Origin: an uncultured Candidatus Binatia bacterium
Lineage (GTDB): Bacteria > Desulfobacterota > Binatia > Bin18
Assembly (NCBI GenBank): GCA_965247985.1
Contig: OZ252051.1
Coordinates: 4,227,060 to 4,291,059, forward strand
Direction: 5' to 3'
Length of the DNA stretch: 64,000 bases
Shown here: piece after piece, positions 7,892-47,590 of the stretch
Numbering within the stretch: position 1 is the stretch's first letter
How the letters are laid out: each line of letters begins with the position of its first letter
Translations under genes and position numbers: made by a program
The notes under the pieces: generated by a model
Database searches by the model: none
Seen by the model: the letters and a program-made list of their open reading frames with translations, nothing else
What the model was told of the DNA's origin: nothing

Positions 7892-9124
7892 ATGTTGACC
7901 TCAGATCTCCTGCTGACGCGGACCGAAGGTCCGTATCTCTATCCACGTTATGTTCGGACCGACACTCCTCGCTTTACACGGATGGCCAAGGAGCTGATCT
8001 CCATCTATACCGCTCATGCAGGCAAGCCCAGACGGGAGCTGACTACGGCGCTCAACCAGTATGCGGAAGACCGCACTGATTTTCGCATCCAGCGTGGGCT
8101 GGCCAAGCTGCTGCGCGATGACCGGTGTGAATTTGAGGAGCAGGCGGTTGCTCCCCCTATGGAGATCCGTCAGCGCCTGTTCACCTTAGCCCGCGAAAAC
8201 CATCCCGTGGTCTTACAGCCCGACTTTATCCACCCCGTGACCAAAGACGAGCTGATCGCCGAGGTCGCGCGCGAGTATAAAGCCGAGCCGGAACAGATCG
8301 CGTGGGCGCTCTACGCCGATCTGGCTGAAAACCATATCCTGACGCGCTTCGATCCGCCCGAGCCGACCTGGCTGCTCCAACGCTATAATGTCGCCCTGGC
8401 GCAGGCGCTGCTGTATCGCTGCGTGCGGATGAAGCTGTCGGTCTTTCGGAACATTCCGAGCCGCTACAAGCAGCTCTTCAAGTTCATCAAATTCTATCAG
8501 CTCATGCACGCCATTGAGGGCGATCTTGACAGTGGCTATGAGATTCTGCTGGACGGGCCGGTCAGCATGTTCCGCCTGTCCCAGAAATATGGCCTCAAGC
8601 TGGCCGTTTTCCTGCCGGCCTTACTGCTGTGTACCCGCTGGAAGATGGAGGCTGAGATTATCACCCCCGACGGCGAGCGGCGCTCCTTCCCACTCGACGA
8701 GAGTGCCAAGCTCGTCTCTCACTATCGTGACAGCACAATGTATGACTCTCTGCTCGAAAAGACCTTTGCCGAACGCTTTCACGCGATTGATAGCGACTGG
8801 CAGATTGAGCGGGAGGTCGCCATTATCAATCTGAAAGAAACGGTCTTTATTCCGGACTTCGCCTTTCGCCACGCAGACGGACGCACCGCGCTCATGGAAA
8901 TCGTGGGCTATTGGCGGCCGGAGTATCTTGAAAAAAAACTCATGAAGCTGCGCCGTTCAGGTCGAGCAGACATGGTGATTGCCGTGTCGGCCAACCTCAA
9001 CGTCGGCGAAGAAGACTTCGCTGACGTTCCGGGGAGTGTCTTCTTTTTTAAGAACCGGATTAATCCCAAAGAAGTCATTGCGCGCCTGGAGCAAGTGGGA
9101 CAGGATGCCAGCCAAGAGACCTGA
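7892..9124 (+). CDS. DUF790 family (Bax1-like) predicted nuclease
   Basis: MLTSDLL start, LYADL, RYNVALAQALL, LDGPVSMF, and C-terminal PD-(D/E)xK-like IPDF...EIVGYWRPEYL. Confidence 0.85.
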   Translation: MLTSDLLLTRTEGPYLYPRYVRTDTPRFTRMAKELISIYTAHAGKPRRELTTALNQYAEDRTDFRIQRGLAKLLRDDRCEFEEQAVAPPMEIRQRLFTLARENHPVVLQPDFIHPVTKDELIAEVAREYKAEPEQIAWALYADLAENHILTRFDPPEPTWLLQRYNVALAQALLYRCVRMKLSVFRNIPSRYKQLFKFIKFYQLMHAIEGDLDSGYEILLDGPVSMFRLSQKYGLKLAVFLPALLLCTRWKMEAEIITPDGERRSFPLDESAKLVSHYRDSTMYDSLLEKTFAERFHAIDSDWQIEREVAIINLKETVFIPDFAFRHADGRTALMEIVGYWRPEYLEKKLMKLRRSGRADMVIAVSANLNVGEEDFADVPGSVFFFKNRINPKEVIARLEQVGQDASQET

Positions 9125-9200
9125 ATATCCTTGAAATATCCCTGAAATGTCCCCGTGCAGAGACGCAAGACGAGGCGGTCGTCCTGCTATGGATCAGCGT

Positions 9201-10460
9201 CTATAGCTTCCCCGCCTCCCGCAGCTCTTGTACCTGCGCCTCTTGTATAATCGCGCCTTCTTCATACAGCGCAGCGATCTGTTCGGCTGAATAGGACAAC
9301 TGCTCGCGCAGCACCTCTTCATTATGTTCACCCAGGAAGGCGGCGCGAAAGGGAATCTCGACGTTCGCATTGGAAAAATGAAAGGGCGATTTGGCAATCG
9401 GGGTTGAGCCCAGCAGCGGATGCGGCACGTCTTGAAACAGGCCGCGGGCTTTCAACTGCGGATGCGCAGCCGCACCAGGAATATCCAGGATCGGAGCGGA
9501 CGGCACCCGGGCTTCGGCCAAAATTTTCAGTGGCGTTTCGTCGTCTTCAAACGTTTGGAGCCAGTCTTCGATATGTTTACGAACCTCTGCACTCCGCTGT
9601 ATACGATCCTCCATTGTGGCGTAGCGTTCGTCCGTCGTCAGTTCCGGCTTGCCCATCGCCTTGGTTAAGGCCGGCCATTGGTGACCGGCGACGGCAAAAA
9701 CGAGATAGCCTTTTTTTGCCTTGTACACGCCATAGGGACACAAATTAAAAAAGTCCCCACCAAAACGGTGGGGCACAATGGAACCCTGACTCATCATAAA
9801 AAGCGGGAAGTTGACGTAGTCCAGGTAGACCAGAGATTCGAGCTGCGACACGTCAATATACTGCCCCTCCCCACTGCCGGCGCGGTGAAAGAGCGCGGCG
9901 CAGATTGCGAGCGCCCCATGAATACCCGCGTTCGGATCACCAAAATAGTTACCAACATAGGTCGGTGGCCCATCCGGTTCCCCGGTCATGGCCATCACGC
10001 CACTCTGGGCCTGAGCGATAATGTCAAAGCTGGTATGGGTGGCGTATGGCCCATCCTGACCATAGCCTGACACCGAGCACATGATCAGTTTGGCGTTCAG
10101 CTCTTTGAGCGTGTCATAATCCAGCCCATGCCGGGCCATCACCCCAGGACTGTAATTTTCAACCACAACGTCCGCCTTGCGCACCAGTTTATAGACGATT
10201 TCCTTTCCCTTCGGATGCTTGATCTCAACACATACACTTTTCTTGCCGGCGCAGGCGGCGAGATAGAGCGCACTTTGGCCATGCTCCACAAGATGGATCT
10301 GACGTCCCAGATCACCGCCGGGCGCGCGTTCGATCTTGATCACATCCGCGCCTAGGTCGGCCAGAATCCGGGTCGCAGATGGCCCGGCAAGATACTGGGT
10401 GAAGTCGAGCACTGTTATGCCAGATAGGAGTTTTTGTGCAGCCTTCGTATTGTCAGCCAT
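9201..10460 (-). CDS. Family III CoA-transferase (CaiB/BaiF)
   Basis: LSGITVLDFTQYLAGP, LADLGADVIKIE, ADVVVENY, catalytic Asp in YFGDPN, LGEHNEEVL. Confidence 0.92.
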   Translation of the reverse strand: MADNTKAAQKLLSGITVLDFTQYLAGPSATRILADLGADVIKIERAPGGDLGRQIHLVEHGQSALYLAACAGKKSVCVEIKHPKGKEIVYKLVRKADVVVENYSPGVMARHGLDYDTLKELNAKLIMCSVSGYGQDGPYATHTSFDIIAQAQSGVMAMTGEPDGPPTYVGNYFGDPNAGIHGALAICAALFHRAGSGEGQYIDVSQLESLVYLDYVNFPLFMMSQGSIVPHRFGGDFFNLCPYGVYKAKKGYLVFAVAGHQWPALTKAMGKPELTTDERYATMEDRIQRSAEVRKHIEDWLQTFEDDETPLKILAEARVPSAPILDIPGAAAHPQLKARGLFQDVPHPLLGSTPIAKSPFHFSNANVEIPFRAAFLGEHNEEVLREQLSYSAEQIAALYEEGAIIQEAQVQELREAGKL

Positions 10461-10653
10461 TTCTCCTCCTCAGAGTAGTCGCAATAGACTTAAGCCTGTT
10501 GGATTGTGGCTGATCAATCCAGAATTGACAATGAGGTCGCAGGCATGGTCCGCTTGACTCAGGTTGCCAGTCACCTACGATAATAAGGGCGCGATTGAGA
10601 AGATTGGGTCAGGCACGCAGCAAAAACACAAAGCGCAGCAGAAAGGATCTGTC

Positions 10654-11634
10654 ATGTTGATCCAAACCCGACACGGCTGGGAAATTCCTGAGCGTACGGC
10701 AACCCCGGAAGATATCTACCTCAACCGTCGAACATTTCTGCAAGCGCTCGGGATCGCTAGCATCAGCACGCTGGGTCCCTTTGGGCTGGCCGGGTGTGAA
10801 AGCTCGGGCGCAAAAGAAGCTCCTCTGGTTCGAGGCGTCCCTGAACCAAGCGCAACAGCCGACCTCTACCCGGCGCAGCGCAACGAACGGTTTACACTTG
10901 ACCGTCCCCTCACGGACGAAGTGGACGCCGCGTATTACAATAATTTTTACGAGTTCAGCTCGCGTAAAAAGCTGGTCGCGCGCCTGGTCGAGCGCTGGCA
11001 GACCCGCCCCTGGCAGGTTGAGGTGGCCGGTCTGGTTCACAAGCCACAGACCTTTGATGTTGACGACCTGGTGCGGAAGATGCCGCTTGAAGAGCGCCTG
11101 TACCGCCACCGCTGCGTGGAAGCGTGGTCCATGGCCGTGCCCTGGACCGGCTTTCCCATCAAGGCGCTGGTTGATCTCGTCCAGCCGCTCGCCTCGGCCA
11201 GATACCTGCGCATGGTGACGTTCAACGACCCAGAACACGCGCCCGGTATGCGCAATGACACCTATCCGTGGCCGTATCACGAAGGGCTCAGCATGGCCGA
11301 GGCCACCAATGAGCTGGCCCTGTTCGTGACCGGCATTTATGGCCACGAGCTGACCAAACAGCACGGTGCACCGATTCGGCTCGTGGTGCCGTGGAAGTAT
11401 GGCTATAAAAGCATCAAGTCGATTGTGCGTTTAGAGTTTGTCGCAGAACAGCCAAAGACATTCTGGAATACCTTAATCCCCTGGGAGTACGACTTTGTTG
11501 CCAACGTGAATCCCGCCGTCCCTCATCCCCGTTGGTCCCAGGCGAGTGAGCGCATCCTGGGGACAAGAGAAGTCAAGGCAACCCTGCCCTACAACGGCTA
11601 TGGAGAGTTTGTCACATCTCTGTATAAAACATGA
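10654..11634 (+). CDS. msrP: Protein-methionine-sulfoxide reductase catalytic subunit MsrP (molybdoenzyme)
   Basis: Tat signal NRRTFL, YNNFYEF, RCVEAWSM (Mo-binding Cys), GAPIRLVVPWKYGYKSIKSIV, HPRWSQA. Confidence 0.93.
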   Translation: MLIQTRHGWEIPERTATPEDIYLNRRTFLQALGIASISTLGPFGLAGCESSGAKEAPLVRGVPEPSATADLYPAQRNERFTLDRPLTDEVDAAYYNNFYEFSSRKKLVARLVERWQTRPWQVEVAGLVHKPQTFDVDDLVRKMPLEERLYRHRCVEAWSMAVPWTGFPIKALVDLVQPLASARYLRMVTFNDPEHAPGMRNDTYPWPYHEGLSMAEATNELALFVTGIYGHELTKQHGAPIRLVVPWKYGYKSIKSIVRLEFVAEQPKTFWNTLIPWEYDFVANVNPAVPHPRWSQASERILGTREVKATLPYNGYGEFVTSLYKT

Positions 11635-35708: not shown

Positions 35709-37568
35709 CTACCCAAGTTGACCGTTGGCAGCAGAGAGCGGTCCATCCTCTCGACGTTTGGGCCGCATGTTCCGGTCTAAGACCTTTTTGCGCAAGCGGA
35801 TGGACAGCGGCGTCACCTCAACCAATTCATCAGCGCTGATCCATTCCAGGGCATCCTCTAAATCCATCGCTTTATACGGAACAAGGCGTACTGCCTCATC
35901 TCGACCGGACGCTCGGACATTAGTGAGCTTCTTCTCTCGACTCACATTCACGTCGAGATCTTTGTCACGTGAATTTTCCCCGACCACCATACCCTCGTAC
36001 ACACGTGTCCCGGCCGGGATAAAGAACACCCCGCGCTCCTGCAAATGAAAAAGCGAATACGGGGTCGCCGGCCCTTCGCGGTCTGCGACCAAGGCCCCGT
36101 TAATGCGGTTCTGGATCGGCCCGTGCCAGGGGGCATATCCGTTGAATAGGGTATTCATAATGCCCGTGCCGCGCGTATCCGTCAGAAAGCGCGAACGAAA
36201 GCCAATCAAACCGCGTGACGGAACAGAGAACTCCAGACACACCCGACCTGACTCCGGTGGAGCCATGTTTGTCATGATCCCTTTACGCTGGGCCATGAGT
36301 TGAGAGACCTGGCCGACATAATCTTCTTGGACGTCGATGAGTAATAGCTCCATCGGCTCCTGGAGTTGCCCCTCAATTTCTTTCACGATGACAGTCGGCT
36401 TGAAAACCTGGAGCTCGTAGCCTTCCCGACGCATGGTTTCAATCACGACCGAGAGCTGGAGTTCGCCCCGGCCCAGCACCCGAAAGGCATCAGGGGAATC
36501 GGTCTCTTCCACGTGCAGACTTACGTTTTTATGCACCTCGGCGAAGAGCCGTTCGCGGATTCTACGCGACGTCACATATTGTCCTTCCCGTCCCGCCCAG
36601 GGGCCAATGTTCACCCCAAAGATCATAGCAAGAGTCGGCTCATCGATCTGAATCGTGGGCAGGGCCACCGGATTCTCACTATCAGAGATCGTCTCACCGA
36701 TCTGAATCTCTTCAATACCAGCCACCGCGACAATATCGCCGGCCTGCGCAGACGCTATCTCGTGCCGTTTGAGACCCTGCCAGCTATACAGCTGGGCGAC
36801 TTTACACGGCACGCGGGAGCCGTCGTCACGACACAGCGTATAGGCTTCCGTGCTCCGAAGCTCGCCTTGGATAATGCGACCGATAGCAATCCGGCCGACA
36901 TAATCGTTGTAGTCCAGATTATTCACGTGGAACTGAACGGGCCCATCCACAGCGTGGGACGGACCGGGTAGGGCAGAGACAATCAGGTCAAAGAGCGGCT
37001 GAAGATTGTGCCCCTCTTCGTCCAGGTCGCGTTTGGCAATACCGGCCCGGGCGTTGGTGTACACCACGGGAAACGCCAACTGCTCGTCTGAGGCATCCAG
37101 ATCAATGAAGAGGTCATAGATTTCATCCAGCACTGTGGAGACTCGGGCGTCTTGCCGGTCAATCTTGTTAATACAGACAATCGATGCCAGCCCGGCTTCC
37201 AGCGCTTTCTTCAGCACAAAACGTGTTTGGGGCAGCGGGCCTTCCGAGGCGTCAACCAAGAGCATCACACCGTCAACCATAGCCAGCGCGCGCTCGACTT
37301 CTCCGCCAAAATCCGCATGACCCGGCGTATCGACAAAATTAATTTTCACGCCTTGATACGAGAGCGCGGCATTCTTGGCCAAGATGGTAATGCCCCGTTC
37401 CCGTTCAAGCGCAAACGAGTCCATCACCCGCTCGACCACCTGTTCATTGTCCCGAAAGGTCCCACTCTGTTTGAGGAGGGCGTCAATGAGTGTCGTTTTG
37501 CCATGATCAACATGCGCGATAATGGCGACGTTTCGAATATCATTACGCCGGGGCGTACCGTTGTGCAA
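35709..37568 (-). CDS. typA: Translational GTPase TypA/BipA
   Basis: [59 protein letters not shown]; TTG start after GGGAGG. Confidence 0.96.
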
Positions 37569-37669
37569 AATCGTTTCCTCCCTGTACTGTGACTTTCTCT
37601 CTCCTATGAATTTCTCTTTCCAGACTTCGAGCGGCAGGCGGCCAGCGAGCCGCAGCGGGTCCAGATCGC

Positions 37670-38071
37670 TCACTCCCTTGCATCCAGCCGGCGCAGCCGG
37701 CCGGCCCAGCCGAGAATCCGCCGATCGGCACTCACCAGTTGATGCCCCCCCAGCAGCGCCGTCGCCACGATCAGGCGGTCGGCAGGATCGCCAGGGAGAC
37801 TCGCGAGCCCGGCAGCGCGGGTGCCGATTTCGCCGTCCACGGGAATCTCGACCAGACCGTCCTCCAGAAGGGTGCGACGCCACGAAGCAGTGTCTCTCAA
37901 TAAGGTCAACCTACCCGTGTCGTGCAGCATGGCGACTTCCCAGAATGAGATCGCAGAGACCGCGACGGCTTGCGCTGTCCAGGCCGACTCAACCGCTTTG
38001 CGAGTCCGCCGTCCGAGCCTCCTGTCGCCAATGCGCAGCCAGAGCAGAACGTGGGTGTCCAGCAAGATCAC
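37670..38071 (-). CDS. vapC: VapC PIN-domain toxin
   Basis: [37 protein letters not shown]; GTG start overlaps the antitoxin stop (GTGA). Confidence 0.9.
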
Positions 38072-38349
38072 AGTCGGTCGTCTCGGTTCGTGCCGGCCAT
38101 TGCGTCCCATTCCACATCAACCGGGTCCACGATGTCGCCGTGTATCCGAAGCACATCGCGGTCCCGGCCAAAGGGCGTCTTCGGGGTCGGGCGGTACGGT
38201 GCCAGCCGCGAGACCGGGCGGCCGTTTTTGGTGATGATGATCTCGACACCGTCCTCTGCAACTTCGTCCATGAGCTTGAGGCATTTGGCCTTGAACTCCG
38301 ACGCTTTTATCGTCCGTGGGCTCAGCAGTGTATCGTGTCGGTCTTTCAT
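38068..38349 (-). CDS. Phd/YefM-family antitoxin
   Basis: IKASEFKAKCLKLMDEV...IIITKNGRPVSRL. Confidence 0.9.
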   Translation of the reverse strand: MKDRHDTLLSPRTIKASEFKAKCLKLMDEVAEDGVEIIITKNGRPVSRLAPYRPTPKTPFGRDRDVLRIHGDIVDPVDVEWDAMAGTNRDDRL

Positions 38350-38405
38350 TGTGTGCCTTCCAGCGTGGCTCTTCGTTTGAACAAGGATATGTCTCGCTAC
38401 GGTTT

Positions 38406-38456
38406 CATGGTTATAACCATGGTCATGACCATACAATGCCGTGTGGCGTACTGCAA
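38406..38456 (-). promoter_or_regulatory. TA promoter with tandem palindromic operators
   Basis: TTGCAG-17 nt-TATGGT (TG immediately before the -10); palindromes CATGGTTATAACCATG (38406-38421) and ATGGTCATGACCAT (38419-38432). Confidence 0.7.
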
Positions 38457-38578
38457 CGTAGCCAGCGCCTCACCCGTTTCGCACCCGCAGTGCCGCGCCC
38501 GCCGCAATCCGGCTCTTTTGACAACTTCACAGGAAGCGGACAAAGTTAAAGCGCTTTCCCTTCAGCACCGCCTCCTCC

Positions 38579-39353
38579 CTACACCATGTATTTCACCATT
38601 CCACCGTCAATGTCATAGGCCGCACCCGTAATAAAACTCGCCCGCTCTGATGCCAGGAAGGTCACCAAGCTGGCAATCTCTTCAGGCCGGCCGAAACGAC
38701 CCAGCGGGATATTCGCCTGCGCAAACCCTTCGATCATTCCGTCCGGGTCTTCAGGGTTAATCATCTTTGCAGCGTTCTCCCACAACGGAGTCCGAACCGG
38801 CCCCGGACACACGGCATTGACCAGGACATTGTCTTTGGCGAGTTCATCGGCCAATGTCTTGGTTAGACTAATCACCGCCGCCTTGGTCGCGTTATAATCA
38901 ATCATACCACCGCCCGGTTGCTTCCCGAAAATCGAAGAGATGTTGATAATCCGACCCCAGCGCTGCTCACGCATGCGCGGCAGGGCGAGGCGGGAACAGC
39001 GCAGCACACTAAAAAGATTCGCGTCAATATTTTCCTGCCAGGCTTTATCAGGCAGATCGAGCAATTGACTTAAATGCATCCCACCGGCGTTATTGACCAG
39101 AATATCGAGCCGGCCGAACCGCTCTCCTGTTTGGGCAAAGAGTCTTTCGATGTCCGCTACTTGGGTCATGTCCGCTTGTATCGCCAGCACGTCAGAGCCC
39201 AGCTCGCGCGCTGTTTGGTCGAGCTGCTCCCGGTTGCGGGCACACAGCGCAATTTCACCCCTTCTCTTGGACAAAACTCTCCGCAATGGCGCGGCCAATA
39301 CCATAACTCGCGCCGGTAATGATTGCCACACGGTCCTGTAAACCAAAGTCCAT
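38579..39353 (-). pseudogene. SDR oxidoreductase, frameshifted near the 5' end (real lesion or sequencing error)
   Basis: MDFGLQDRVAIITGASYGIG (TGxxxGxG) ends at TGA after 32 codons; the remainder (NNAG, NISS, YNATK, CPG) is in another frame. Confidence 0.8.
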
Positions 39354-39596
39354 ACGTCCCTCCTAACAGTGCCAAATACGAGATTGCCTGAGCGAGATTA
39401 CCTGGATTGGGTGTGCGGGCCTATTCTCCTGGCATTCAGGAGACTGTCAAGAGAGGAAAACGAAAATCGGGAGGGCAGCGCCGTTGCGCGTCACGTCCAG
39501 GAAGTGCAAGATGTAGCCATACTCGTTGAGGAGCAAGAAAGGGCCCCTGCTGAAAGGCAGGCGTGACCAGCGCTCGTCTGCCATGCTGCTAGTGCT

Positions 39597-40379
39597 ATGC
39601 TGAAAGCCGTCTTTTTTGACTTTGATGGAACCCTGGCTGACGACGGCGCAACGATTGATCAGGCCCTCCACGCTGCACGTGCAGTGATATGCGAACGCTG
39701 GCCGGACCTCGGGGCGACGGCTCTTGAATCAACCTACCGCCAGATTTCCGACCGTGCCTGGGGAGATTATGATCGCTACCTGCGTCCCCTGGGGTCACCG
39801 GAGGCCATGCTGGCCTCCCTGTGGCGGCAAACCCTTGAACGGTTTGGCTACCATGAGGCAGGAGTGGAACACGACGCAGCCACGACCTATTGGCAACAGC
39901 GTCTACACGCCTGTCAACCCTATCCTGATGTTCTACCCTTCCTGTCAAACCTGACACAACGCTTTCATGTAAGTCTGCTCACCAACGGCGCACCCGGCAT
40001 GCAGCGGGCGAAAGTGAAGGCAGCCGGTCTCCAGGATTATTTCCGCGATATCTTCGTCGGTGGCGAGTTTGCCCAAGGCAAACCCGCGCCTTTTATTTTC
40101 TCCGCGGCTCTCACAGCCGCCAACTGTCGTCCTGAAGAAGCCGTGTACATCGGCGACTCTCTTCTGCACGATGTTGTTGGCGCCCGAAAAAGCGGGCTGC
40201 ATAGCGTCTGGCTCAATCGCAAGCGACAACACAAACAAGAGGTCATTCAAGCCTATACGCGGAGCAGCAGGGCTGATACGGCGAACGCTGACCATCTTGA
40301 CTATCTCGACCAGTTGGCCCAGCCCGATTTTGAGATTACACAGCTCACCGCGCTCCCAGCCTGTCTGGAACAACTCTAG
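39597..40379 (+). CDS. HAD-superfamily hydrolase
   Basis: FFDFDGTL, LLTNG, GKP, IGDS...DVVGA. Confidence 0.9.
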   Translation: MLKAVFFDFDGTLADDGATIDQALHAARAVICERWPDLGATALESTYRQISDRAWGDYDRYLRPLGSPEAMLASLWRQTLERFGYHEAGVEHDAATTYWQQRLHACQPYPDVLPFLSNLTQRFHVSLLTNGAPGMQRAKVKAAGLQDYFRDIFVGGEFAQGKPAPFIFSAALTAANCRPEEAVYIGDSLLHDVVGARKSGLHSVWLNRKRQHKQEVIQAYTRSSRADTANADHLDYLDQLAQPDFEITQLTALPACLEQL

Positions 40380-40471
40380 GGACTTTCGGGTCTGTTCTCT
40401 TCCACGCCCTTACCCTTGTCCGAAGAGTGTTCCACTGATAGCTGATGGACTGCGAGTCAGAAGGGACCGGA

Positions 40472-41035
40472 ATGGAAAAAAACGCATATAAAATCCTGTT
40501 GTTCAATTATTATCGTGACGCCGAATTGCGTGGGGCAGACTTGATTCTGCGTTTGATCAACCATGCCGAGAACCAGAACATTCAAGAAAAACTGGCCCGT
40601 CATCTGGCCGATGCGACCAATCATGCCTGGCTGTGGACCGAGCGCATTCGGGCGCTCGGGGGTGAGCCGATGCGGATTGATAATGGCTACCATCGTCAAC
40701 TCCGACGCAAGGCCGGTCTGCCGGCCAATTTCCTTGACCTGCTGGCGCTCACCTGCATTGTGGCCGAGCGGGCCTATAAACGCTATGCAGAACATGCCGC
40801 TCGGTCCGATGTCGCTCCAGAGACGCTCGCCGTGCTGCACGAGATGCAGACAGATGAGAAAACCCACCTGACCTGGATTCGGGAAAAGATAGCTGAACTC
40901 GAAGCCAAAGAAGGCAAGGACAAGGTGGACGCTGCCCTGCGGCATTATCGGGAGATAGAGGCCGCTGTTTTTGCCGACCTGCAGCAAGAAGAGCAGCGCG
41001 CCTTAGCCCAGGTTGGGCCGGACGAAACAAGCTAA
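40472..41035 (+). CDS. Ferritin-like four-helix protein
   Basis: RDAELRG, HLADATNHA, VAERA, DEKTH follow ferritin-like ligand spacing. Confidence 0.7.
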   Translation: MEKNAYKILLFNYYRDAELRGADLILRLINHAENQNIQEKLARHLADATNHAWLWTERIRALGGEPMRIDNGYHRQLRRKAGLPANFLDLLALTCIVAERAYKRYAEHAARSDVAPETLAVLHEMQTDEKTHLTWIREKIAELEAKEGKDKVDAALRHYREIEAAVFADLQQEEQRALAQVGPDETS

Positions 41036-41057
41036 GGCCGCCTGCCAGGCGAGCCGC

Positions 41058-42650
41058 TCAAATTTTCTTTTTTTGATTGGCGACATAATCGACCAGGAGA
41101 TATTCCCCTAGATTATCCGGGCGGGTGTAAAAGGCGCGGCCCCGGTTCATCTTGGTCATTTTGTCCACAAAGGTGCGCAGGTTGGGGCTGTCGTCGAGCA
41201 TGAAGGTATTAATCGTGACCCCCCGCTTGGTGACTTTTTCTACTTCTCGCAGGGTTTCCTGGGCCGCCCGCATACTGATCCCCCCAAAAGAGAGCGGCCA
41301 TTCGCAATAGAGCCGACCCTGAGAAAAATACGCGGTGGGTTGGCCGTCGGTGACGACAATAATGTGTTGATTATGACCGGGGTGGCGACGCAGCAGGTCC
41401 CCGGCCAGACGCAGACCGTCCTGGAGGTTGGTGAACGGATCGCCCATATTCCAACTCGCCTCGGGCAGGTCTTTGACCTTGAGTTCCACGGCTCGCGTAA
41501 AAAAACCGACAATCGAGAAATAATCGCGGGGATAGCGGGTGCGGATCAGACTCTCCAGCGCCAGGGCGACTTTTTTGGCAGCCCCGAATCGACCTTCCCA
41601 GCTCATGGACCAACTCATATCAAGGAGGAGGACGGTTGACGTGGTGGTCGTGTGGTCAGTATCGAAGATCGTAAAGTCTTCCGGGTGGATAGACACCGGG
41701 ACGCCCGTGTTCCGCTGTATGGACTTTTTGAGCGTCCCGACCAGATCGAGATGCATGGGGTCACCGTACTGGTACGGCCGCGTTTCGTCCATTTTGATCT
41801 CGGCAACACCGCGATGGTCTGTGGCGTGAGAGCCGTTCCGGTCGCGCAGCAGATTGGTATAGATGTCTTGCAGGGCGAGCTGGCCAATCCGCCGGACGCC
41901 TTTGGGCGACAACTGCACCCGGCCTTCGCGGGAGATCAGGAACCCGGCTTCTTCTAACAACGACTGCATCTGTTGGAGATTCTGGAAGTCCTGGCTGGCC
42001 GCCTGGCCGATCAATTCCTGCAACTGGGCCGGGTCTATCTTCTCCGGATGTCCTGACAGCAGGTTTTGCTCCATCTCTTGCAGCTGTTCCATTTCCTCCA
42101 TCAGTTCCAGCGCCTCTTGATAGCTGAGCGGACGCGGTCCGTTAAACAGATCGTTGAAACGGCGCTGGAAGTTCTCAAGCGACTGAATATTGTCAAACTC
42201 CTGCATGAGCTCGTCAAACGCGGCTTGCGCGGCCTCGTCCTCGAACGGATAGTCCGCCAGCTTCTCCATTTTCTCGCTTAAGCGTTGCGGCAACTGCTGG
42301 AGAAACTGTTCTTTCTCTTCGAGTTCGGGCTGCTGAGGACGGCGCTGCTCAAGCGTGCGTTGCTCCTGATTCAGAATGGAGTCAAGACGCTCCTGCATCT
42401 CGTCGAGCGAGGAGCGCATATTGGACTCACGGTAGCGTTTGCGCATCTCTTCGCGCAGGTCGCGCACAAGATCATCCAGGCCCTTGAGCTTATCGTCCTC
42501 ATCCCCCAGGCCCTGTCGCATGAGATGCTCAAGCGCCTGCTGCATATCGTCCGTCGAGGACAGATGTTCGGCCAGCTCTTCAAAAATTTTGTCAGCAGAC
42601 AGCCGGATACGCTGGCTGCCGTCCCAGTCGGTATAACGAATGGTAATCAT
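41058..42650 (-). CDS. VWA-domain protein (partner of chelatase-like AAA+ ATPase)
   Basis: RYTDWDG N-terminus, RPYQYGD, MIDAS LLLDMSWSM, TNLQDGL, VTDGQPT. Confidence 0.88.
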   Translation of the reverse strand: MITIRYTDWDGSQRIRLSADKIFEELAEHLSSTDDMQQALEHLMRQGLGDEDDKLKGLDDLVRDLREEMRKRYRESNMRSSLDEMQERLDSILNQEQRTLEQRRPQQPELEEKEQFLQQLPQRLSEKMEKLADYPFEDEAAQAAFDELMQEFDNIQSLENFQRRFNDLFNGPRPLSYQEALELMEEMEQLQEMEQNLLSGHPEKIDPAQLQELIGQAASQDFQNLQQMQSLLEEAGFLISREGRVQLSPKGVRRIGQLALQDIYTNLLRDRNGSHATDHRGVAEIKMDETRPYQYGDPMHLDLVGTLKKSIQRNTGVPVSIHPEDFTIFDTDHTTTTSTVLLLDMSWSMSWEGRFGAAKKVALALESLIRTRYPRDYFSIVGFFTRAVELKVKDLPEASWNMGDPFTNLQDGLRLAGDLLRRHPGHNQHIIVVTDGQPTAYFSQGRLYCEWPLSFGGISMRAAQETLREVEKVTKRGVTINTFMLDDSPNLRTFVDKMTKMNRGRAFYTRPDNLGEYLLVDYVANQKKKI

Positions 42651-42751
42651 GTCAGTACGGAAGCGCGGTCGTCACGAGATGACGGGATCATAGAGCAACG
42701 CGCGCGCCTTCGCTATACCCGGCGACCCTCCTGCTTCATGCTGACGAACTG

Positions 42752-42788
42752 TTCCCCTTCCCTCTGATAAGGGGGAGTGAGGGGGTTT
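42752..42788. repeat. C/G-run palindromic dispersed repeat
   Basis: TTCCCCTTCCCTCTGATAAGGGGGAGTGAGGGGGTTT, related to copies at 55348 and 55476; near the left edge of the insert. Confidence 0.55.
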
Positions 42789-42832
42789 GCCCGGCCTCTG
42801 GATTTAGCTACGCCAGACCTGAGAGAGGAAGC

Positions 42833-42984
42833 AGGAAACGCAAAGTTGTTGTCTCTGAAGCCGAAGAAGGGACTACTGGGCCGGGGTGCCTGCTATACTG
42901 GGCTGCGCAACCTGGGGGTAGACATGCGACGAATTGCAGAAGAATATCCATGAAGCGGTCGAGGGCTGCTTCTCGGCGGACATG
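42833..42984 (+). pseudogene. Decayed HicB-family antitoxin
   Basis: Reads KRKVVVSEAEEG / YWAGVPAILGCATWG*TCDELQKNIHEAVEGCFS. One frameshift near 42871, in-frame TAG at 42919, start codon lost (AGG after GAGAGG). Confidence 0.75.
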
Positions 42985-43002
42985 GACAACGAAGGAGAAA
43001 GT

Positions 43003-43647
43003 GTGGAAACAAATTACGTCTTAATTGACTTGGAAAATGTTCAGCCGGAACACCTGAGTGTTTTAGCCGGGCATGACTTCAGGGTTATTGTTTTCGTAGG
43101 CGAGAACCAATCAAAGATATCATTTGATTTGGTACTAGCGGTTCAGAATTTGGGTGAAAACGCCGAGTACATCAAAATTAAAGGCAACGGACCAAACGCC
43201 CTTGATTTTCATATCGCGTTCTACATCGGCCAGTTTTCCAAAGAAAACGGCCAGGGCCATTTCCACATCATTTCAAAAGATAGAGGGTTTGACCCGCTTA
43301 TTAAACATCTTGAATCTAAAAAAATTCGAGCACACAGGCATAAGGACATCAGTGAGATCCCCCTTCCAAAACCGGCAAAAGCGACAAAAAAGGGGTCCGC
43401 TCACGTTTCAAAACCTGCGGGTTCAGCCATAACAGCAGAGCGCGTTCAGAAAATCGTTGAATTCCTGATTGCCCGAGGCAATGCAAAACCAAGAAAATTG
43501 AAAACCCTCTCCAATTCGATCAATTCATTCTTCAAGAAGAGCTTAATAGAGAACGAGCTGAGCGCTCTCATAGACGAATTGGTCAAGCGTGGCCTCGTTA
43601 TTGTCAGCAGTAATCAAAGCAACGTGAGCTATCAGTTGAAAAAGTAA
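43003..43647 (+). CDS. PIN/NYN-like nuclease domain protein with C-terminal helical (wHTH-like) domain
   Basis: YVLIDLENVQP, NALDFHIAFYIG, ISKDRGFDPL acidic PIN motifs; GTG after AAGGAG. Confidence 0.8.
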   Translation: METNYVLIDLENVQPEHLSVLAGHDFRVIVFVGENQSKISFDLVLAVQNLGENAEYIKIKGNGPNALDFHIAFYIGQFSKENGQGHFHIISKDRGFDPLIKHLESKKIRAHRHKDISEIPLPKPAKATKKGSAHVSKPAGSAITAERVQKIVEFLIARGNAKPRKLKTLSNSINSFFKKSLIENELSALIDELVKRGLVIVSSNQSNVSYQLKK

Positions 43648-43698
43648 TTGTTGAGGCGCTCTCCGATTGTGGTACACGATGGCCAAAGGAGAGACCGT

Positions 43699-43956
43699 AT
43701 GGCAAAGACCGCAATGATCCGCGCCCGAGTGGAACCAGACTTGAAGCATGAGGCTGAAGAAGTCTTCTCAAAGCTCGGGCTCTCATCAACCGAAGCTATC
43801 ACCCTATTCTATCGACAGGTGGCCTTGCAGCACGGCCTCCCGTTTGAGGTAAAGAGCCCCAACGCCGAGACCCACGAGGCGTTGCGACAAGCGCATGACA
43901 GGGAGGGCCTGACCGAATACACGGACCTTGACCAACTCAAGGCCAAGTACGAATGA
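43699..43956 (+). CDS. RelB/DinJ-family antitoxin (no cognate toxin adjacent)
   Basis: MIRARVEPDLKHEAEEVFSKLGLS...AITLFYRQV...GLPFEVKSPNAET; AAGGAG SD. Confidence 0.9.
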   Translation: MAKTAMIRARVEPDLKHEAEEVFSKLGLSSTEAITLFYRQVALQHGLPFEVKSPNAETHEALRQAHDREGLTEYTDLDQLKAKYE

Positions 43957-44013
43957 GCAATGCGTGAGGTAGCTTGTGAAGAGACTGACCTAGCGCAACT
44001 CAACGGGGCGTTC

Positions 44014-44083
44014 TGGAGTGCGGGCGTTCAGCCCGCAAGAAATCCCCTCTCGGGAGGGGTGCCGCGTCAGCGGCGGGGTGGGT
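44014..44083. repeat. Cluster of REP-like palindromes
   Basis: TGGAGTGCGGGC-gttca-GCCCGCA, then CCCCTC-tcgg-GAGGGG and GCCGC-gtca-GCGGC; the first unit resembles 47730-47753. Confidence 0.55.
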
Positions 44084-44178
44084 TTCCTCTCGAACAAGGA
44101 GTTTTCTTGATTCCAAGGCAATCCGAGTATAGCCTCCCCTCTTTGAATGACCTTTTCCGAGACGACATAGGAACGATA

Positions 44179-45315
44179 ATGCGTAAACCCACATCCAAAA
44201 CAAGGCGCTGGAATCGTATCCATGTCCATCGCTTGAATAAACGACGCCTGAAATTCAAAAGAAAAAGAAGGACGCGACCGAGACAAAGAAATCGAGAGGG
44301 TTCTGTACCTAGCAGTGTTGGGAAAAGGGCGGTCACTATCCAGTGTCCACTGGATTTTTCGCTGGAAACCAACTTTGATAGTATTATGGACATCCTTGAT
44401 CAAATCCGGACACAAAGCAAAAAAAAGAGAAATGAACGGATATATATTGACTTCAGAAAGATTGAAAATATCTCACCGTCGGCCGCACTTGTCCTCGCCG
44501 CGGAGTTGGACCGATGGAATCACACGCCTCTGAGACGGACGCAAAACACAAAGCTTCACGCAATTGATGTGAACGAATGGGACCCCGATGTTCGGTCGCT
44601 CCTTGCAGATATGGGCTTTTTCGATTTGCTTCGTGTACCAAACCCTCAAGTAGATTCGGATTCTAGCAATCTTTCCTCCCGTTTGGGTTTTGTAAAATTT
44701 CGCACGGGAGATAAGGTTGACGGAGAAGCGATTGAGGAGCTACGAAGAACTGACTTGGACCCTTTCGTCGGAGTTCCTAATAAACGCTATCTTTATGCCG
44801 CTGTTACAGAAGCGATGACGAATGTAGTTCATCACGCGTACCCGAGTCGACTCCACCCACCACCGCCCAAGCCTAACTGGTGGCTATCAGCTTCACGCAA
44901 TGCAAAGACTGGCGAAGTGGTTATCATGATCTATGATCAGGGTGCGGGCATCCCTGAGACACTGCCACGAAAATTTCCTGAACAGATCAGAAAATTAATT
45001 CCCCAGCGTTTTAGCAGAGATCACGCGCGAATGATTCAAGCGGCGCACGAGTTAAGCAGATCAGGGACAAGGCAAGGTCATCGAGGTCATGGCCTCGGAA
45101 GGGATGTTCGAGAATACGTAAATATTCTCAGTCGTAGTAGTCGCTATCGTGTAGTCAGTCTTCAGGGTGAATATATCCATGAGAAACCTACGAGCGGCCA
45201 GAGTACGGATTCTTTCATAAATCACAGTCGTTCCTTGCTAGGAACTCTGATCGAATGGACAATAACAAGCCAAGCGAGGCACCATGAACAAGACCACTAT
45301 TTCGATAGCAGATGA
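44179..45315 (+). CDS. STAS-like + GHKL/HATPase (RsbW/SpoIIAB-like) ATP-binding protein
   Basis: STAS-like IYIDFRKIENISPSAALVL...LADMGFFDLL; Bergerat boxes EAMTNVVHH (N), YDQGAGI (G1), GHRGHGL (G2), GTLIEW. Confidence 0.75.
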   Translation: MRKPTSKTRRWNRIHVHRLNKRRLKFKRKRRTRPRQRNREGSVPSSVGKRAVTIQCPLDFSLETNFDSIMDILDQIRTQSKKKRNERIYIDFRKIENISPSAALVLAAELDRWNHTPLRRTQNTKLHAIDVNEWDPDVRSLLADMGFFDLLRVPNPQVDSDSSNLSSRLGFVKFRTGDKVDGEAIEELRRTDLDPFVGVPNKRYLYAAVTEAMTNVVHHAYPSRLHPPPPKPNWWLSASRNAKTGEVVIMIYDQGAGIPETLPRKFPEQIRKLIPQRFSRDHARMIQAAHELSRSGTRQGHRGHGLGRDVREYVNILSRSSRYRVVSLQGEYIHEKPTSGQSTDSFINHSRSLLGTLIEWTITSQARHHEQDHYFDSR

Positions 45316-45619
45316 TTTTTCCGCCTATCCAGCTGGCCGCTATCCTGACGACGGTAAATACAACGGTACGACATTTCGTAAGGATGTTCTGGTTCCTGCG
45401 CTGAGGGGCAGTAACGATCAGGTGGAGGTCATTTTCGATGGTGTGGCTGGTTTTGGATCATCGTTCTTAGAAGAGGCATTCGGCGGGCTCATCCGCGACG
45501 AAGAAATGACCAAAGAATTTCTCGACACACATTTGATCTTGAGGACAACCGAACTAGAACTCGAGGATTTCGTGAAACTGGCTCAACGATACATTGATGA
45601 GGCATGGAGCGGAAAGTGA
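45284..45619 (+). CDS. DUF4325 STAS-like domain protein
   Basis: DFSAYPAGRY...GTTFR...VIFDGVAGFGSSFLEEAFGGL; overlaps the upstream gene by 32 nt. Confidence 0.8.
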   Translation: MNKTTISIADDFSAYPAGRYPDDGKYNGTTFRKDVLVPALRGSNDQVEVIFDGVAGFGSSFLEEAFGGLIRDEEMTKEFLDTHLILRTTELELEDFVKLAQRYIDEAWSGK

Positions 45620-46050
45620 TGGCCGATCCTGTCATTGCATCGATCATCGGAGCAACCGTTGGAGGTTTAGTGGGATGGCTTGGGAACTACCACCTCCAAT
45701 ACCGGTTATATCGACAGATTCGTAGCGTAGATGAGCTGAGAGATAGGCTTTATTCCTTACTTGAGATCGTCTCGAGATATTGGGTTGCCGGCGGAGCAAC
45801 AGAATATGAACAAAAGCGCTTGGAAGCAGAGCTTGTCGCCGCCCAGCATGTTGTCATATCGGAGTTCGTCATCCTCAGACAGATGAACAGGAGAGCGAAA
45901 CGGGCGCAGGATGATATGGAATATTTACGATTGGACTTATTAGATGCCGCCACCGGAGGCAGCTTTCAACAAAGCAACTGGAAGCCGGACCCGCAACGGG
46001 TTATTCGAACCGCGAGAATCGTGACACGCATAGTCCATATGTTGATCTGA
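45619..46050 (+). CDS. Hypothetical protein, one N-terminal TM helix plus helical domain
   Basis: TGATG coupling to the DUF4325 gene; hydrophobic VIASIIGATVGGLVGWLG followed by amphipathic helices. Confidence 0.7.
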   Translation: MADPVIASIIGATVGGLVGWLGNYHLQYRLYRQIRSVDELRDRLYSLLEIVSRYWVAGGATEYEQKRLEAELVAAQHVVISEFVILRQMNRRAKRAQDDMEYLRLDLLDAATGGSFQQSNWKPDPQRVIRTARIVTRIVHMLI

Positions 46051-46162
46051 CGAATCTCGCATCGGACTGAGAGGGGACAGTAGGAGAAAGAATCTCGCCG
46101 AGTGCCATAATATTGACGACCTCAAATTCTACTATTATGACTACGTGGCATCGTGAACCGCT

Positions 46163-47590
46163 CTAGGCGCGATAGGTCTGGCGGCCGCCCTGGCGCTCTT
46201 TGTTCAGCTTCTGATGCAAGTGCAGCCCTTCTAGGATGAATTCGGCTGCGGTGGAAATGAAGCTGGGCTGGCCGTCCACACCTAATACCGCCAGACTGTC
46301 CTGCAGCCCTTCAATGTTTTGGACGCCCTCCAGATACTCCTGAGACGGCATCATGTCCGAGACCTCGACGCCGCCGCCGTTCGCAAAATAGTCGATGACC
46401 GGCTGGAGATTTTCGATCTTGATATATTTGTCGAACACGTTCTGGATGGCACGATTCACCAGACGCTCAATGAGATCTCCATCTTTCTGCTCTTCACCCA
46501 TGTATTCCAGCTCAATTTTTCCCGCGGTAGAGGGATAGAGCGCGTACAGGTCGCTGATGCGAGGCACGGCCTCGTGCTCGCCCAGGCGCACGGCTCGTTT
46601 CTCGGCATTACTGACCAAGCTCTCGAAGTTATTGATCGTCATGCGGACACTCACACCGGACGATTGATTAATTTCGTTTGAGCCGCGCGCCTCCATGGTG
46701 AGTTGGGCGCAGATCTCTTTCATGAACCGCGGGGTGTCGACTACGAGGCCGTCATGCGCGAAGCGGGCCGCTTCCTGCTCCATAATGGAGATTTCTTCCT
46801 CAATGGAGCGCGGATAGTGGGTGCGAATCTGGACATCAAAACGATCTTTCAGCGGCGTGATAATGCGCCCCCGACTGGTATAGTCTTCAGGATTCGCACT
46901 GGCCACAATAATAACATCGAGCGGCAGACGGACCTTGAAGCCTTTGACCTGAAAGTCCTGCTCTTCCATGAGGTTGAACAGGCCAACCTGCACTTTCTCA
47001 GTCAGGTCGGGCAGTTCGTTGACCGCGAAGATGCCTCGGTTCGTGCGCGGAATCAGGCCGTAGTGGATAGTCTCCTCATCGGCCAGATAGCGCCCTTCGG
47101 CGACCTTAATCGGATCAACCTCACCGATGAGGTCGGCAACGGACACATCTGGCGTGGCCAGCTTCTCGGCATAGCGCTCGTCGCGTGACAGCCAGCGGAC
47201 TTCAAGCGCCTCTCCGCGTTCCGCGGCCAATCGACGCGCTTGCGGAGAGATGGGCACCAGGGGATTCTCTGGAATTTCAGCATCCCGAATGGTGGGTACA
47301 TAGTCGTCCAACAAGGTCGTCAGGCCACGAATCACCCGCGATTTTGCCTGTCCACGCTCACCCAGAAAGACGATGTGATGCCCAGCCAGCACGGCATTTT
47401 CGATCTCTGGAATAACGGTCTCGTCAAAGCCAATAATGCCGGGGAGCAATTTGTCCCCCGCGGAGAGCCTACGAATCAAATTCGCCCGCATCTCTTCTCG
47501 CACGGAAAGAACTTGATAGTCTACTTGCTTGAGATCACCAACCGTCTGGACTTCACGACGGAGCGTTTCAGTCGGAATTGCCTGTTGCAC
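46163..47590 (-). CDS. Mg-chelatase-like AAA+ ATPase
   Basis: Walker A variant GERGQAKSR, EKLATPD, FAVNELPDL, ASANPEDYTSRGRIITPLKDRF. Confidence 0.88.
   Translation of the reverse strand: MQQAIPTETLRREVQTVGDLKQVDYQVLSVREEMRANLIRRLSAGDKLLPGIIGFDETVIPEIENAVLAGHHIVFLGERGQAKSRVIRGLTTLLDDYVPTIRDAEIPENPLVPISPQARRLAAERGEALEVRWLSRDERYAEKLATPDVSVADLIGEVDPIKVAEGRYLADEETIHYGLIPRTNRGIFAVNELPDLTEKVQVGLFNLMEEQDFQVKGFKVRLPLDVIIVASANPEDYTSRGRIITPLKDRFDVQIRTHYPRSIEEEISIMEQEAARFAHDGLVVDTPRFMKEICAQLTMEARGSNEINQSSGVSVRMTINNFESLVSNAEKRAVRLGEHEAVPRISDLYALYPSTAGKIELEYMGEEQKDGDLIERLVNRAIQNVFDKYIKIENLQPVIDYFANGGGVEVSDMMPSQEYLEGVQNIEGLQDSLAVLGVDGQPSFISTAAEFILEGLHLHQKLNKERQGGRQTYRA

Follow-up and report, generated by a model that had tools for sequence, protein, structure and literature searches.

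A CapK/VapK-type kinase-STAS cassette coupled to a conserved membrane protein in an uncultured Candidatus Binatia bacterium

Kinase-STAS systems and the locus under study

Two bacterial systems that couple a GHKL-type serine kinase to a STAS protein, CapK/CapS and VapKSC, were published in 2026. Here we describe a related three-gene cassette, termed K-S-M, which is located on the plus strand at 44179-46050 of a stretch of 64,000 nucleotides from an uncultured Candidatus Binatia bacterium (contig OZ252051.1; this whole stretch is called the window below). According to the main text of Chambers, Rani, Min, Villa and Corbett (EMBO J 2026, PMC13373217), VapKSC consists of the kinase VapK (STAS-GHKL), the antitoxin VapS (a STAS domain with a short C-terminal helix) and the toxin VapC, a PIN nuclease, and it is represented by 289 operons. 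VapS binds and neutralises VapC, whereby its conserved Ser48 is buried in the interface, and an S48E exchange abolishes both binding and rescue. With the operon, cells are protected by about 2 logs against phage Bas42.

In the same main text (PMC13373217), CapK is described as a protein with the domain order helix-turn-helix (HTH), STAS, GHKL. It is switched on by single-stranded DNA (ssDNA) and phosphorylates a conserved serine of CapS, which combines a STAS domain with a winged helix-turn-helix (wHTH), and immune operons are thereby de-repressed. CapK and CapS thus form a DNA-damage-activated kinase and a repressor, encoded upstream of immune operons. An early pointer to the family is found in a catalogue of PIN proteins, which notes, in the part considered here, the pairing of DUF4325 proteins with a gene of toxin type, coding for a PIN nuclease (Matelska et al., NAR 2017, PMC5499597).

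K-S-M is a putative CapK/VapK-type kinase-STAS switch that is coupled to a conserved membrane protein; the cassette is widespread and uncharacterised. As CapK/CapS and VapKSC have been published, the kinase-STAS logic, which an initial annotation of the window had proposed, is no longer novel. No membrane-protein variant of a kinase-STAS cassette was found in our literature search, which covered texts other than supplementary tables. The word "transmembrane" does not occur in the main text of PMC13373217, that of Rousset et al. 2022 (PMC9122126) mentions neither HATPase nor DUF4325 nor STAS, and the consulted sections of PMC13092281 (DefensePredictor), PMC12137116 (WASA Vibrio cholerae), PMC12907356 (Acinetobacter dif modules) and PMC7159879 (Kaur et al. 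2020) hold nothing relevant to the cassette.

The three genes overlap tightly, just as the initial annotation had described them. Gene K (44179-45315) codes for a STAS-like and GHKL serine-kinase protein of 378 amino acids (aa). Its open reading frame (ORF) extends over 43960-45315, but we set the start at the ATG at 44179: in the alignment, 29 of 29 homologues have their first residues, M-[RK]-K-P-T, at that point. Gene S (45284-45619), coding for a DUF4325 STAS-like protein of 111 aa, overlaps K by 32 nt (45284-45315). Gene M (45619-46050) codes for a predicted single-pass membrane protein of 143 aa; its start is the ATG at 45619, from which the homologues align, within an ORF that extends to 45604. 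The stop codon of S and the start codon of M have one base in common (gTGATGg, 45617-45621). The DNA is AT-richer than its surroundings, again as annotated before, with a guanine-cytosine (GC) content of 0.44-0.52 over 43000-45999 versus 0.54-0.62 over 36000-42999 upstream.

The three proteins and the predicted S-M complex

The GHKL kinase domain of K (aa 168-367; 44680-45279) carries an N-box with E211, N215 and H219 (44809-44835), a G1 box (D253-G257) and a G2 box (G303-G305). These correspond to the motifs EAMTNVVHH, DQGAG and GHGL, which had already been picked out from the translation in the initial annotation, together with the lack of an obvious HisKA domain, for which there is indeed no Pfam match in K. 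Among 81 sequences, the ATP-binding residues E211, N215, H219, D253 and G255 are invariant (81/81), and G303 and G305 are kept in 80. Pfam detects HATPase_c (1.5e-5) and HATPase_c_2 (2.1e-4), both slightly below the curated cut-offs, and NCBIfam gives weak matches to SpoIIAB and RsbW. Searching 5.8 billion proteins returned 396 homologues of K at E <= 0.001; most of these are unnamed, have a length of about 350 aa and cover about 96% of the query in the alignment, and many are pre-annotated with PF13581.

An AlphaFold2 model of K (mean predicted local distance difference test score, pLDDT, 77.8) was used for structural comparisons. When the GHKL domain was compared with 48,161 solved chains by VIA-align, the top four matches were all anti-sigma serine kinases. 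The best is SpoIIAB (1l0o_A; Z 13.6, root-mean-square deviation 2.6, 138 aligned residues), followed by RsbW (6m36_A, Z 11.0), the RsbW domain of Rv1364c (10.9) and UsfX (8ih8_C, 10.7), whereas the catalytic (CA) domains of histidine kinases do not exceed a Z of 10.0. The whole K model, submitted to Foldseek, returned only generic GHKL proteins (Topo VI-B, ParE, Hsp90), with SpoIIAB at rank 19. From these model comparisons, K has a GHKL serine kinase domain of SpoIIAB/RsbW type, which is the type that had been proposed from the motifs. Two aromatic residues of K are frequently kept, W134 in 59 and W234 in 80 of 81 sequences; they are not mapped onto W68 of CapK or F54 of VapK.

The N-terminus of K (aa 1-40; 44179-44298) is rich in Arg and Lys, which account for 20 of the 40 residues. 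In the model, residues 6-32 form a helix (pLDDT 85-93) that is followed by a disordered linker, and the Arg/Lys-rich character is kept in 29 of 29 close homologues. We infer a nucleic-acid-binding role for this basic helix. It is a single helix in the model, and K has no Pfam match to an HTH family. The middle domain (aa ~48-170; 44320-44688) is STAS-like by its pattern of secondary structure. Strands at 51-55 and 87-91 alternate with helices at 66-81 and 100-115, so that residues 51-122 read beta-alpha-beta-alpha, and Pfam places a weak DUF4325 match (E 0.17) on aa 72-101. A search of the ESM Atlas with the middle domain returned unnamed clusters only. We consider it plausible from the model that this domain is of the STAS type.

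S is a stand-alone member of Pfam family DUF4325 (PF14213, "STAS-like"), which it matches with an E-value of 5.2e-13 and 48.9 bits against a gathering cut-off of 23. The initial annotation had called it STAS-like and had singled out the motif GSSFLEEAFG, which is present. This motif, in its general form G-x-G-S-S-F-L-E-E, comes after a beta strand, like the phospho-serine of STAS antagonists. Conservation among 79 sequences is highest at R19 (79), F61 (78), S60 (76) and S59 (71), and Ser59 and Ser60 (45458-45463) are the candidate phospho-acceptors. Among solved structures, the best sequence match of S is Escherichia VapS (9z7o_A; weak, E 0.2), and the second is the STAS antagonist 3t6o_A. Based on the alignment to 3t6o_A, we take the GSS motif to occupy the position of the serine in the DSSG motif.

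For M, the model (pLDDT 94.8) consists of helices at 4-56, 62-89, 97-112 and 125-142. A predicted membrane helix (aa ~5-23; 45631-45687) is part of the long first helix, which runs on into a four-helix bundle. The membrane helix contains a GxxxG series (G11xxxG15xxxG19), so that the single membrane helix with GxxxG and the helical domain of the initial annotation are both recovered by the model. In the 15 residues that follow the membrane helix, the M family has 196 Lys or Arg residues versus 12 before the helix, and there are more after it in 50 of 51 sequences. By the positive-inside rule, the bundle is predicted to be cytoplasmic. Y54-W55 and a TGGxF motif (T112-F116; 45952-45966) are kept in the family. 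At the same 75 loci, the proteins have a median identity of 20% (M), 31% (K) and 44% (S) to their counterparts in the window. Judged from the sequences, M forms a separate family that is conserved and evolves fast.

No Pfam family matches M above its cut-off, and there is no PIN match. Fold searches, which had been suggested for all three proteins, were informative for the kinase domain of K, as described above. For M, they returned only common four-helix bundles, the best with Z 11.6, where the tool regards about 13 as meaningful for helical bundles. In the ESM Atlas, M falls among unnamed clusters. One sub-threshold lead (0.89) points to a cluster of which 55% is KilB (PF27072), and we note this as a lead only.

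A complex of S with residues 27-143 of M was predicted in three runs and three controls, each protein being given its own unpaired alignment. The ipSAE score (interaction prediction score from aligned errors) was 0.89 in all three runs, and the best of the three controls scored 0.00. In a calibration, 58 of 80 solved complexes came up to the mark applied to this score, as did 2 of 110 mismatched pairs. The three runs have at least 98% of their contacts in common, and the partner has a pLDDT of at least 86. No solved structure that joins a STAS protein to a helical bundle is known to us, and it is thus unlikely that the model reproduces a template.

On the side of S, the predicted interface is formed by A17-Y20, D22-G24, A55-F61, E63 and the C-terminal helix (91-102); on the side of M, it is formed by residues 69-84 and 101-120. 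Ser59 and Ser60 contact T112-Q117 of M, the loop with the TGGxF motif. The interface thus unites the most conserved positions of both families, namely G18, R19, G56, S59, S60 and F61 of S and T112-Q117 of M. The prediction supports binding of S to M through its serine face. The membrane protein as output of the switch, which the initial annotation had suspected, gains support in two ways, by this modelled complex (0.89 versus 0.00) and by the position of M after S in 75 of 80 loci, to which we now turn.

Distribution, mobility and genomic setting

We ran a pattern scan over one genome per species, using an alignment of K homologues. This resulted in 115 confirmed K relatives, and the best 80 loci were examined. 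When the same scan was run with the single K protein, it gave 98 pattern matches and no relative. S is found directly downstream of K in 78 of the 80 loci (by phmmer), and M directly downstream of S in 75 (by an iterated profile). Chance is far from explaining this arrangement, since 75-78 of 80 unrelated loci show the same gene order. By contrast with the cassette genes, neighbouring ORFs are not conserved, and their largest cluster is present at 7 of the 80 loci. K-S-M is a self-contained, horizontally mobile module. A third gene that serves as a variable effector slot, a possibility that had been raised for this locus, is rejected for the K-S-M family because of the 75 loci with M.

Going by the record names, the 80 loci presumably span about ten groups at the level of phyla: Pseudomonadota, Nitrospirota, Nitrospinota, Entotheonella, Binatia, Planctomycetota, Verrucomicrobiota, Desulfobacterota, Bdellovibrionota and Bacteroidota. 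Sequence similarity suggests that the module has been exchanged across phyla recently. The K profile matches 850 clusters at E <= 1e-30 among 1.84 billion representative proteins; the 3,425 clusters at E <= 1e-3 probably include VapK-like or other kinases.

The closest K relatives (L001-L015, 45-70% identity) occur in metagenome-assembled genomes of Entotheonella, Gammaproteobacteria, Rhodospirillaceae, Nitrospira, Binatia and Arenicellales. At the closest named relative, from Entotheonella (L001, 7379-10728; K 70% identical), an rve-type insertion sequence (IS) transposase splits M into two parts (9023-9349 and 10420-10728), and a second transposase-like ORF follows S. One protein among the K homologues (P0089, 471 aa) joins K and S in a single frame and lacks the first ~15 residues of S. 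It could be a natural fusion, or else an artefact of a frameshift within the overlap of 32 nt, and it is not used as evidence.

In Enterobacterales, K was found in 13 of 401 sampled genomes, and S follows K in all 13. Nine of these have a third ORF that is recognised by the M profile; in the other four, it codes for a protein of 163-192 aa with a hydrophobic segment and without a Pfam match, and none of the 13 third ORFs has a PIN domain. The third genes of 10 further loci likewise have no Pfam match. More distant K-S pairs, from a Helicobacter prophage, an Acinetobacter plasmid and Akkermansia, are associated with a different small membrane protein, to which the M profile gives no match; in the Helicobacter prophage, this protein comes after the K-S pair.

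Several copies are located on mobile elements. The temperate Marinobacter phage AS1 carries the trio as AS1_41/40/39 (L081, 3402-5780; M profile versus AS1_39, 4.6e-10). There, the trio directly follows a small gene in divergent orientation to Cro/CI, a position that is typical of lysogen-expressed exclusion or defence genes. A Novosphingobium plasmid carries the trio, and on an Acinetobacter plasmid the cassette adjoins a RelE/ParE-NadS pair.

Decay of the cassette was also observed. In two independent cases, K is broken while S and M are intact: at L011/L126-L127 (G007), where there is a frameshift with one TGA, and at L114/L125 (G396), where a DDE_Tnp_1 IS element has inserted. No locus was seen at which S is lost and M is intact. 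This pattern fits with S protecting against M.

Neighbouring genes were tallied by Pfam family for the two nearest genes on each side, which gave 123 upstream and 132 downstream proteins, and the 25 most frequent families were listed for each. They are a mixture of housekeeping, mobile-element and some defence-type families. The upstream set includes Phage_integrase (5), Sigma70_r2 (2), ResIII (2) and WYL (2), and the downstream set Phage_portal (2), PIN (2), AAA_21 (2), nSTAND1 (2), EcoRV (1) and AIPR (1); transposases are also found among the neighbours. A sigma-70 domain occurs in 2 of 123 upstream proteins and is not among the 25 most frequent families of the 132 downstream proteins, and PP2C phosphatase is not among these families on either flank. 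Beyond these listed families, a single case may still exist. At the locus in the window, the ORF list and Pfam show neither a sigma factor nor a PP2C phosphatase, in agreement with the initial annotation.

In the window, the cassette is part of a variable hotspot (42651-46162) between two core genes on the minus strand, a VWA-domain protein (41058-42650), present in 31 of 31 relatives' genomes, and a MoxR/ChlI-like AAA ATPase (46163-47590; weak NCBIfam matches of ChlI/BchI type), which is beside the hotspot in 12 of 14 regions. The GC dip spans this same stretch. Apart from K-S-M, the hotspot contains a PIN7-domain protein (42934-43647, plus strand; PF18475, 4.8e-32) and a RelB/DinJ-family antitoxin gene (43648-43956, plus strand; TIGR02384 3.3e-18, Pfam RelB 2.2e-12), downstream of which no toxin gene is recognisable, RelE-type included. 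The initial annotation had made out an accessory insert here, with a PIN nuclease and toxin-antitoxin (TA) debris. PIN7 is not conserved beside the trio at other loci. Downstream of M, there is only the convergent core AAA gene and no immune operon.

The spacer of 222 bp between RelB and K (43957-44178) contains a GC-rich stretch with a short, terminator-like hairpin on the minus strand (44044-44059). A promoter and terminator scan of 42600-46300 was uninformative, with 0 promoter-like sites and 3 terminator-like sites where 3.7 are expected.

The trio is single-copy in this genome. Among 30 relatives, a K homologue is found in one other genome (G007), where it is located elsewhere in the genome and is split by a frameshift. 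The gap between the VWA and AAA genes measures 46 bp in G019, which belongs to another family, and from 1.3 kb to more than 13.8 kb in 13 genomes of the same genus, and the trio is absent from this site in all 14. PIN7 is present at the site in 9 of the 14. In one congener (G004; L102, 10897-11904) it is followed by RelB/DinJ as in the window, and in 8 other congeners it occurs without RelB.

We scanned 76 ORFs from the relatives' VWA-AAA intervals for cargo genes. They include parts of type III CBASS (cyclic oligonucleotide-based antiphage signalling system), with two each of SMODS, bacterial HORMA and TRIP13-type AAA. In addition, there are 4 capH/capP-type pairs of HTH and Peptidase_M78, 3 PDC-S26, and 2 each of 8xMP, PDDEXK_4, WYL and HSDR_N. 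The VWA-AAA gap is a variable defence hotspot in this genus. As the site lacks the trio in 14 relatives and holds defence genes in congeners, the trio is a recent cargo of this hotspot.

Proposed mechanism, alternatives and comparison with known systems

We consider it somewhat more probable than not that K-S-M is a membrane-effector variant of the VapKSC-type phospho-regulated TA and anti-phage systems, in which S would restrain M and K would release it. In the resting cell, S would sit on the cytoplasmic bundle of M through its Ser59/Ser60 face and its C-terminal helix, and M would be inactive. A cue from stress or infection, which by analogy with CapK and VapK may be ssDNA, would activate K. 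K would then phosphorylate Ser60 (or Ser59) of S, phosphorylated S would lose its binding to M, and the freed M may act on the membrane and cause growth arrest or abortive infection. Phosphorylation, the direction of the effect, the toxicity of M, the cue and the anti-phage function are what we infer; what was observed or modelled is the recurrent gene order, the folds, the conserved residues of catalysis and of the candidate acceptor site, the mobility, the hotspot setting and, as a model, the interface of S and M.

The output of such a switch might be different. M could be a membrane-anchored sensor or scaffold that binds or releases S upon perturbation of the envelope, for example by phage injection, with K or S acting on an unlinked target. 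The best folds found for M are indeed sensor bundles that follow a membrane helix (TorS 3o1h_A, Z 11.6; the ligand-binding domains of Vc1313, 11.3, and PcaY, 10.7), M has neither a toxin-like motif nor a Pfam match, and the STAS-like domain and basic helix of K could engage other partners. However, the M bundle is predicted to be cytoplasmic whereas those sensor domains are periplasmic, and the Z values are within the range that the tool treats as uninformative for helical bundles. A cassette that crosses phyla without any other conserved gene must, moreover, bring its own output, and the third gene is a toxin in the one characterised relative, as the main text of PMC13373217 describes it. We regard a sensor role of M as unlikely.

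It seems somewhat less likely still that the mechanism is as proposed but serves addiction, so that K-S-M would be a kinase-controlled TA module that stabilises mobile elements or islands and has no real anti-phage function. The cassette adjoins a RelE/ParE-NadS pair on small plasmids and lies beside a RelB/DinJ gene in the window; its spread is patchy (2 of 31 relatives' genomes), and integrases (5 of 123 upstream proteins) and transposases are among its neighbours. Yet the hotspot holds CBASS, capH/capP and PDC-S26 in congeners, the cassette is found in the immunity region of the temperate phage AS1, and VapKSC protects against phage (main text of PMC13373217). The addiction reading also overlaps with the one we prefer, as many TA modules do both jobs. 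A classical partner switch of transcription, in which K would act as anti-sigma factor on a sigma factor from another locus, S would counteract K and M would have an accessory part, appears very improbable to us. The kinase fold of K is nearest to SpoIIAB, RsbW and UsfX, its weak NCBIfam matches are to SpoIIAB and RsbW, and the GSS of S falls, by the alignment to 3t6o_A, on what we take to be the DSSG-serine position. But there is no sigma factor or PP2C gene at the window's locus, sigma-70 domains are present in 2 of the 123 proteins upstream and absent from the 25 families listed for the 132 downstream proteins, mobility over about ten phyla agrees poorly with the regulation of a sigma factor tied to its host, and S is predicted to bind M with its serine face. 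The preference of the initial annotation for a conflict or stress-toxin module over a sigma switch is in line with these points, and with the unconserved neighbours and the defence hotspot in congeners.

Several observations weigh against a phospho-released membrane effector of the VapKSC type. The middle domain of K and S are not significantly similar by hhalign (probability 0.3% with 29 sequences and 1.9% with 80, the latter match being one 18-column stretch over a strand-loop motif), so that the STAS-like N-domain assigned to K in the initial annotation keeps its beta-alpha-beta-alpha pattern and its faint DUF4325 match but finds no backing in this profile comparison. The sequence profile of K reaches RsbW/SpoIIAB only weakly (E ~0.1), the match of S to VapS is of similar weakness, and M has no detectable similarity to a known toxin or pore. 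The S-M score is the model's own confidence, obtained from unpaired alignments, and the decay pattern rests on 3 loci. PADLOC-DB 2.0.0, which dates from 2023 and predates VapKSC, gives no family match for K, S or M up to an E-value of 1, and has no model for the neighbouring PIN7 and RelB/DinJ. Among the upstream neighbours of the 80 loci, matches to defence families (PADLOC) are sporadic, and there is no strong enrichment of defence islands in the two nearest genes. The link to defence islands that had been envisaged is seen at the hotspot of the congeners, and around the 80 loci the enrichment of defence genes is modest.

A farther-reaching idea is that K-S-M is the first example of a large family, as yet undescribed, whose membrane effectors are set free by phosphorylation. 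The STAS antitoxin would clamp the cytoplasmic bundle of M, a membrane toxin, by way of its phospho-acceptor serine, and a nucleic-acid-sensing K with its Arg-rich helix would fire during infection. We think of this as possible, but are more doubtful of it than of the mechanism outlined above. If it were true, the CapK/VapK sensor-kinase module would be a general, swappable trigger for transcription, RNA cleavage or membrane attack, and M would be a new kind of abortive-infection effector. The cassette suggests that the kinase-STAS trigger described in 2026 has been wired to a third type of output, a small membrane protein, and the 850 clusters, the 115 confirmed species-representative loci and the 13 of 401 Enterobacterales suggest that it is common. 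Confirmation would add a new family of membrane effectors to bacterial immunity, and would lend weight to the view that defence systems can exchange their sensor and effector modules. A concrete predicted interface between S and M is now at hand.

In comparison with the described systems, the SpoIIAB-SpoIIAA, RsbW-RsbV and UsfX-RsfB pairs resemble K-S in the kinase fold (Z 13.6 to 10.7) and in having a STAS antagonist that carries a serine where helix 2 begins. They differ in that K-S-M comes without a sigma factor or PP2C phosphatase, that K has about 170 additional N-terminal residues and that the predicted partner of S is a membrane protein. The pairing of DUF4325 and PIN genes noted in the catalogue (the part of PMC5499597 considered above) is also a different one, as PIN7, the gene upstream of the cassette in the window, is of another family and does not accompany the trio in a conserved manner.

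CapK/CapS is closer. Both have a GHKL serine kinase with a fused STAS domain (in K a putative one, by the pattern of the model), an adjacent STAS protein with a conserved serine, and an interface that is broken by phosphorylation, or would be so in K-S-M. In contrast to CapS, S has no wHTH (111 aa, DUF4325 only), and K has a basic helix where CapK has an HTH. Nor does an immune operon follow K-S-M, but only M and then the convergent core AAA gene. Because S lacks a wHTH and no immune operon follows, the output of K-S would be a protein partner and not transcription.

The resemblance extends furthest for VapKSC. Both are operons of three genes, with the kinase first, the small STAS protein second and the differing gene last. 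A GHKL domain without HisKA is combined with a STAS domain in the kinase, for K by a tentative assignment from the model. The STAS protein has ~110-116 aa, its serine is conserved and its C-terminal helix is short, and among solved structures S matches VapS (9z7o_A) best in sequence, if weakly (E 0.2). The serine is buried against the third protein, in a solved structure for VapS-VapC and in the prediction for S-M. Both systems are patchy, mobile and often found near defence genes. They differ in the Arg/Lys-rich N-terminal helix of K, a protein compared with VapK by description, and in the third gene, which codes for a PIN nuclease in VapKSC, whereas M is predicted to consist of a membrane helix and a cytoplasmic four-helix bundle.

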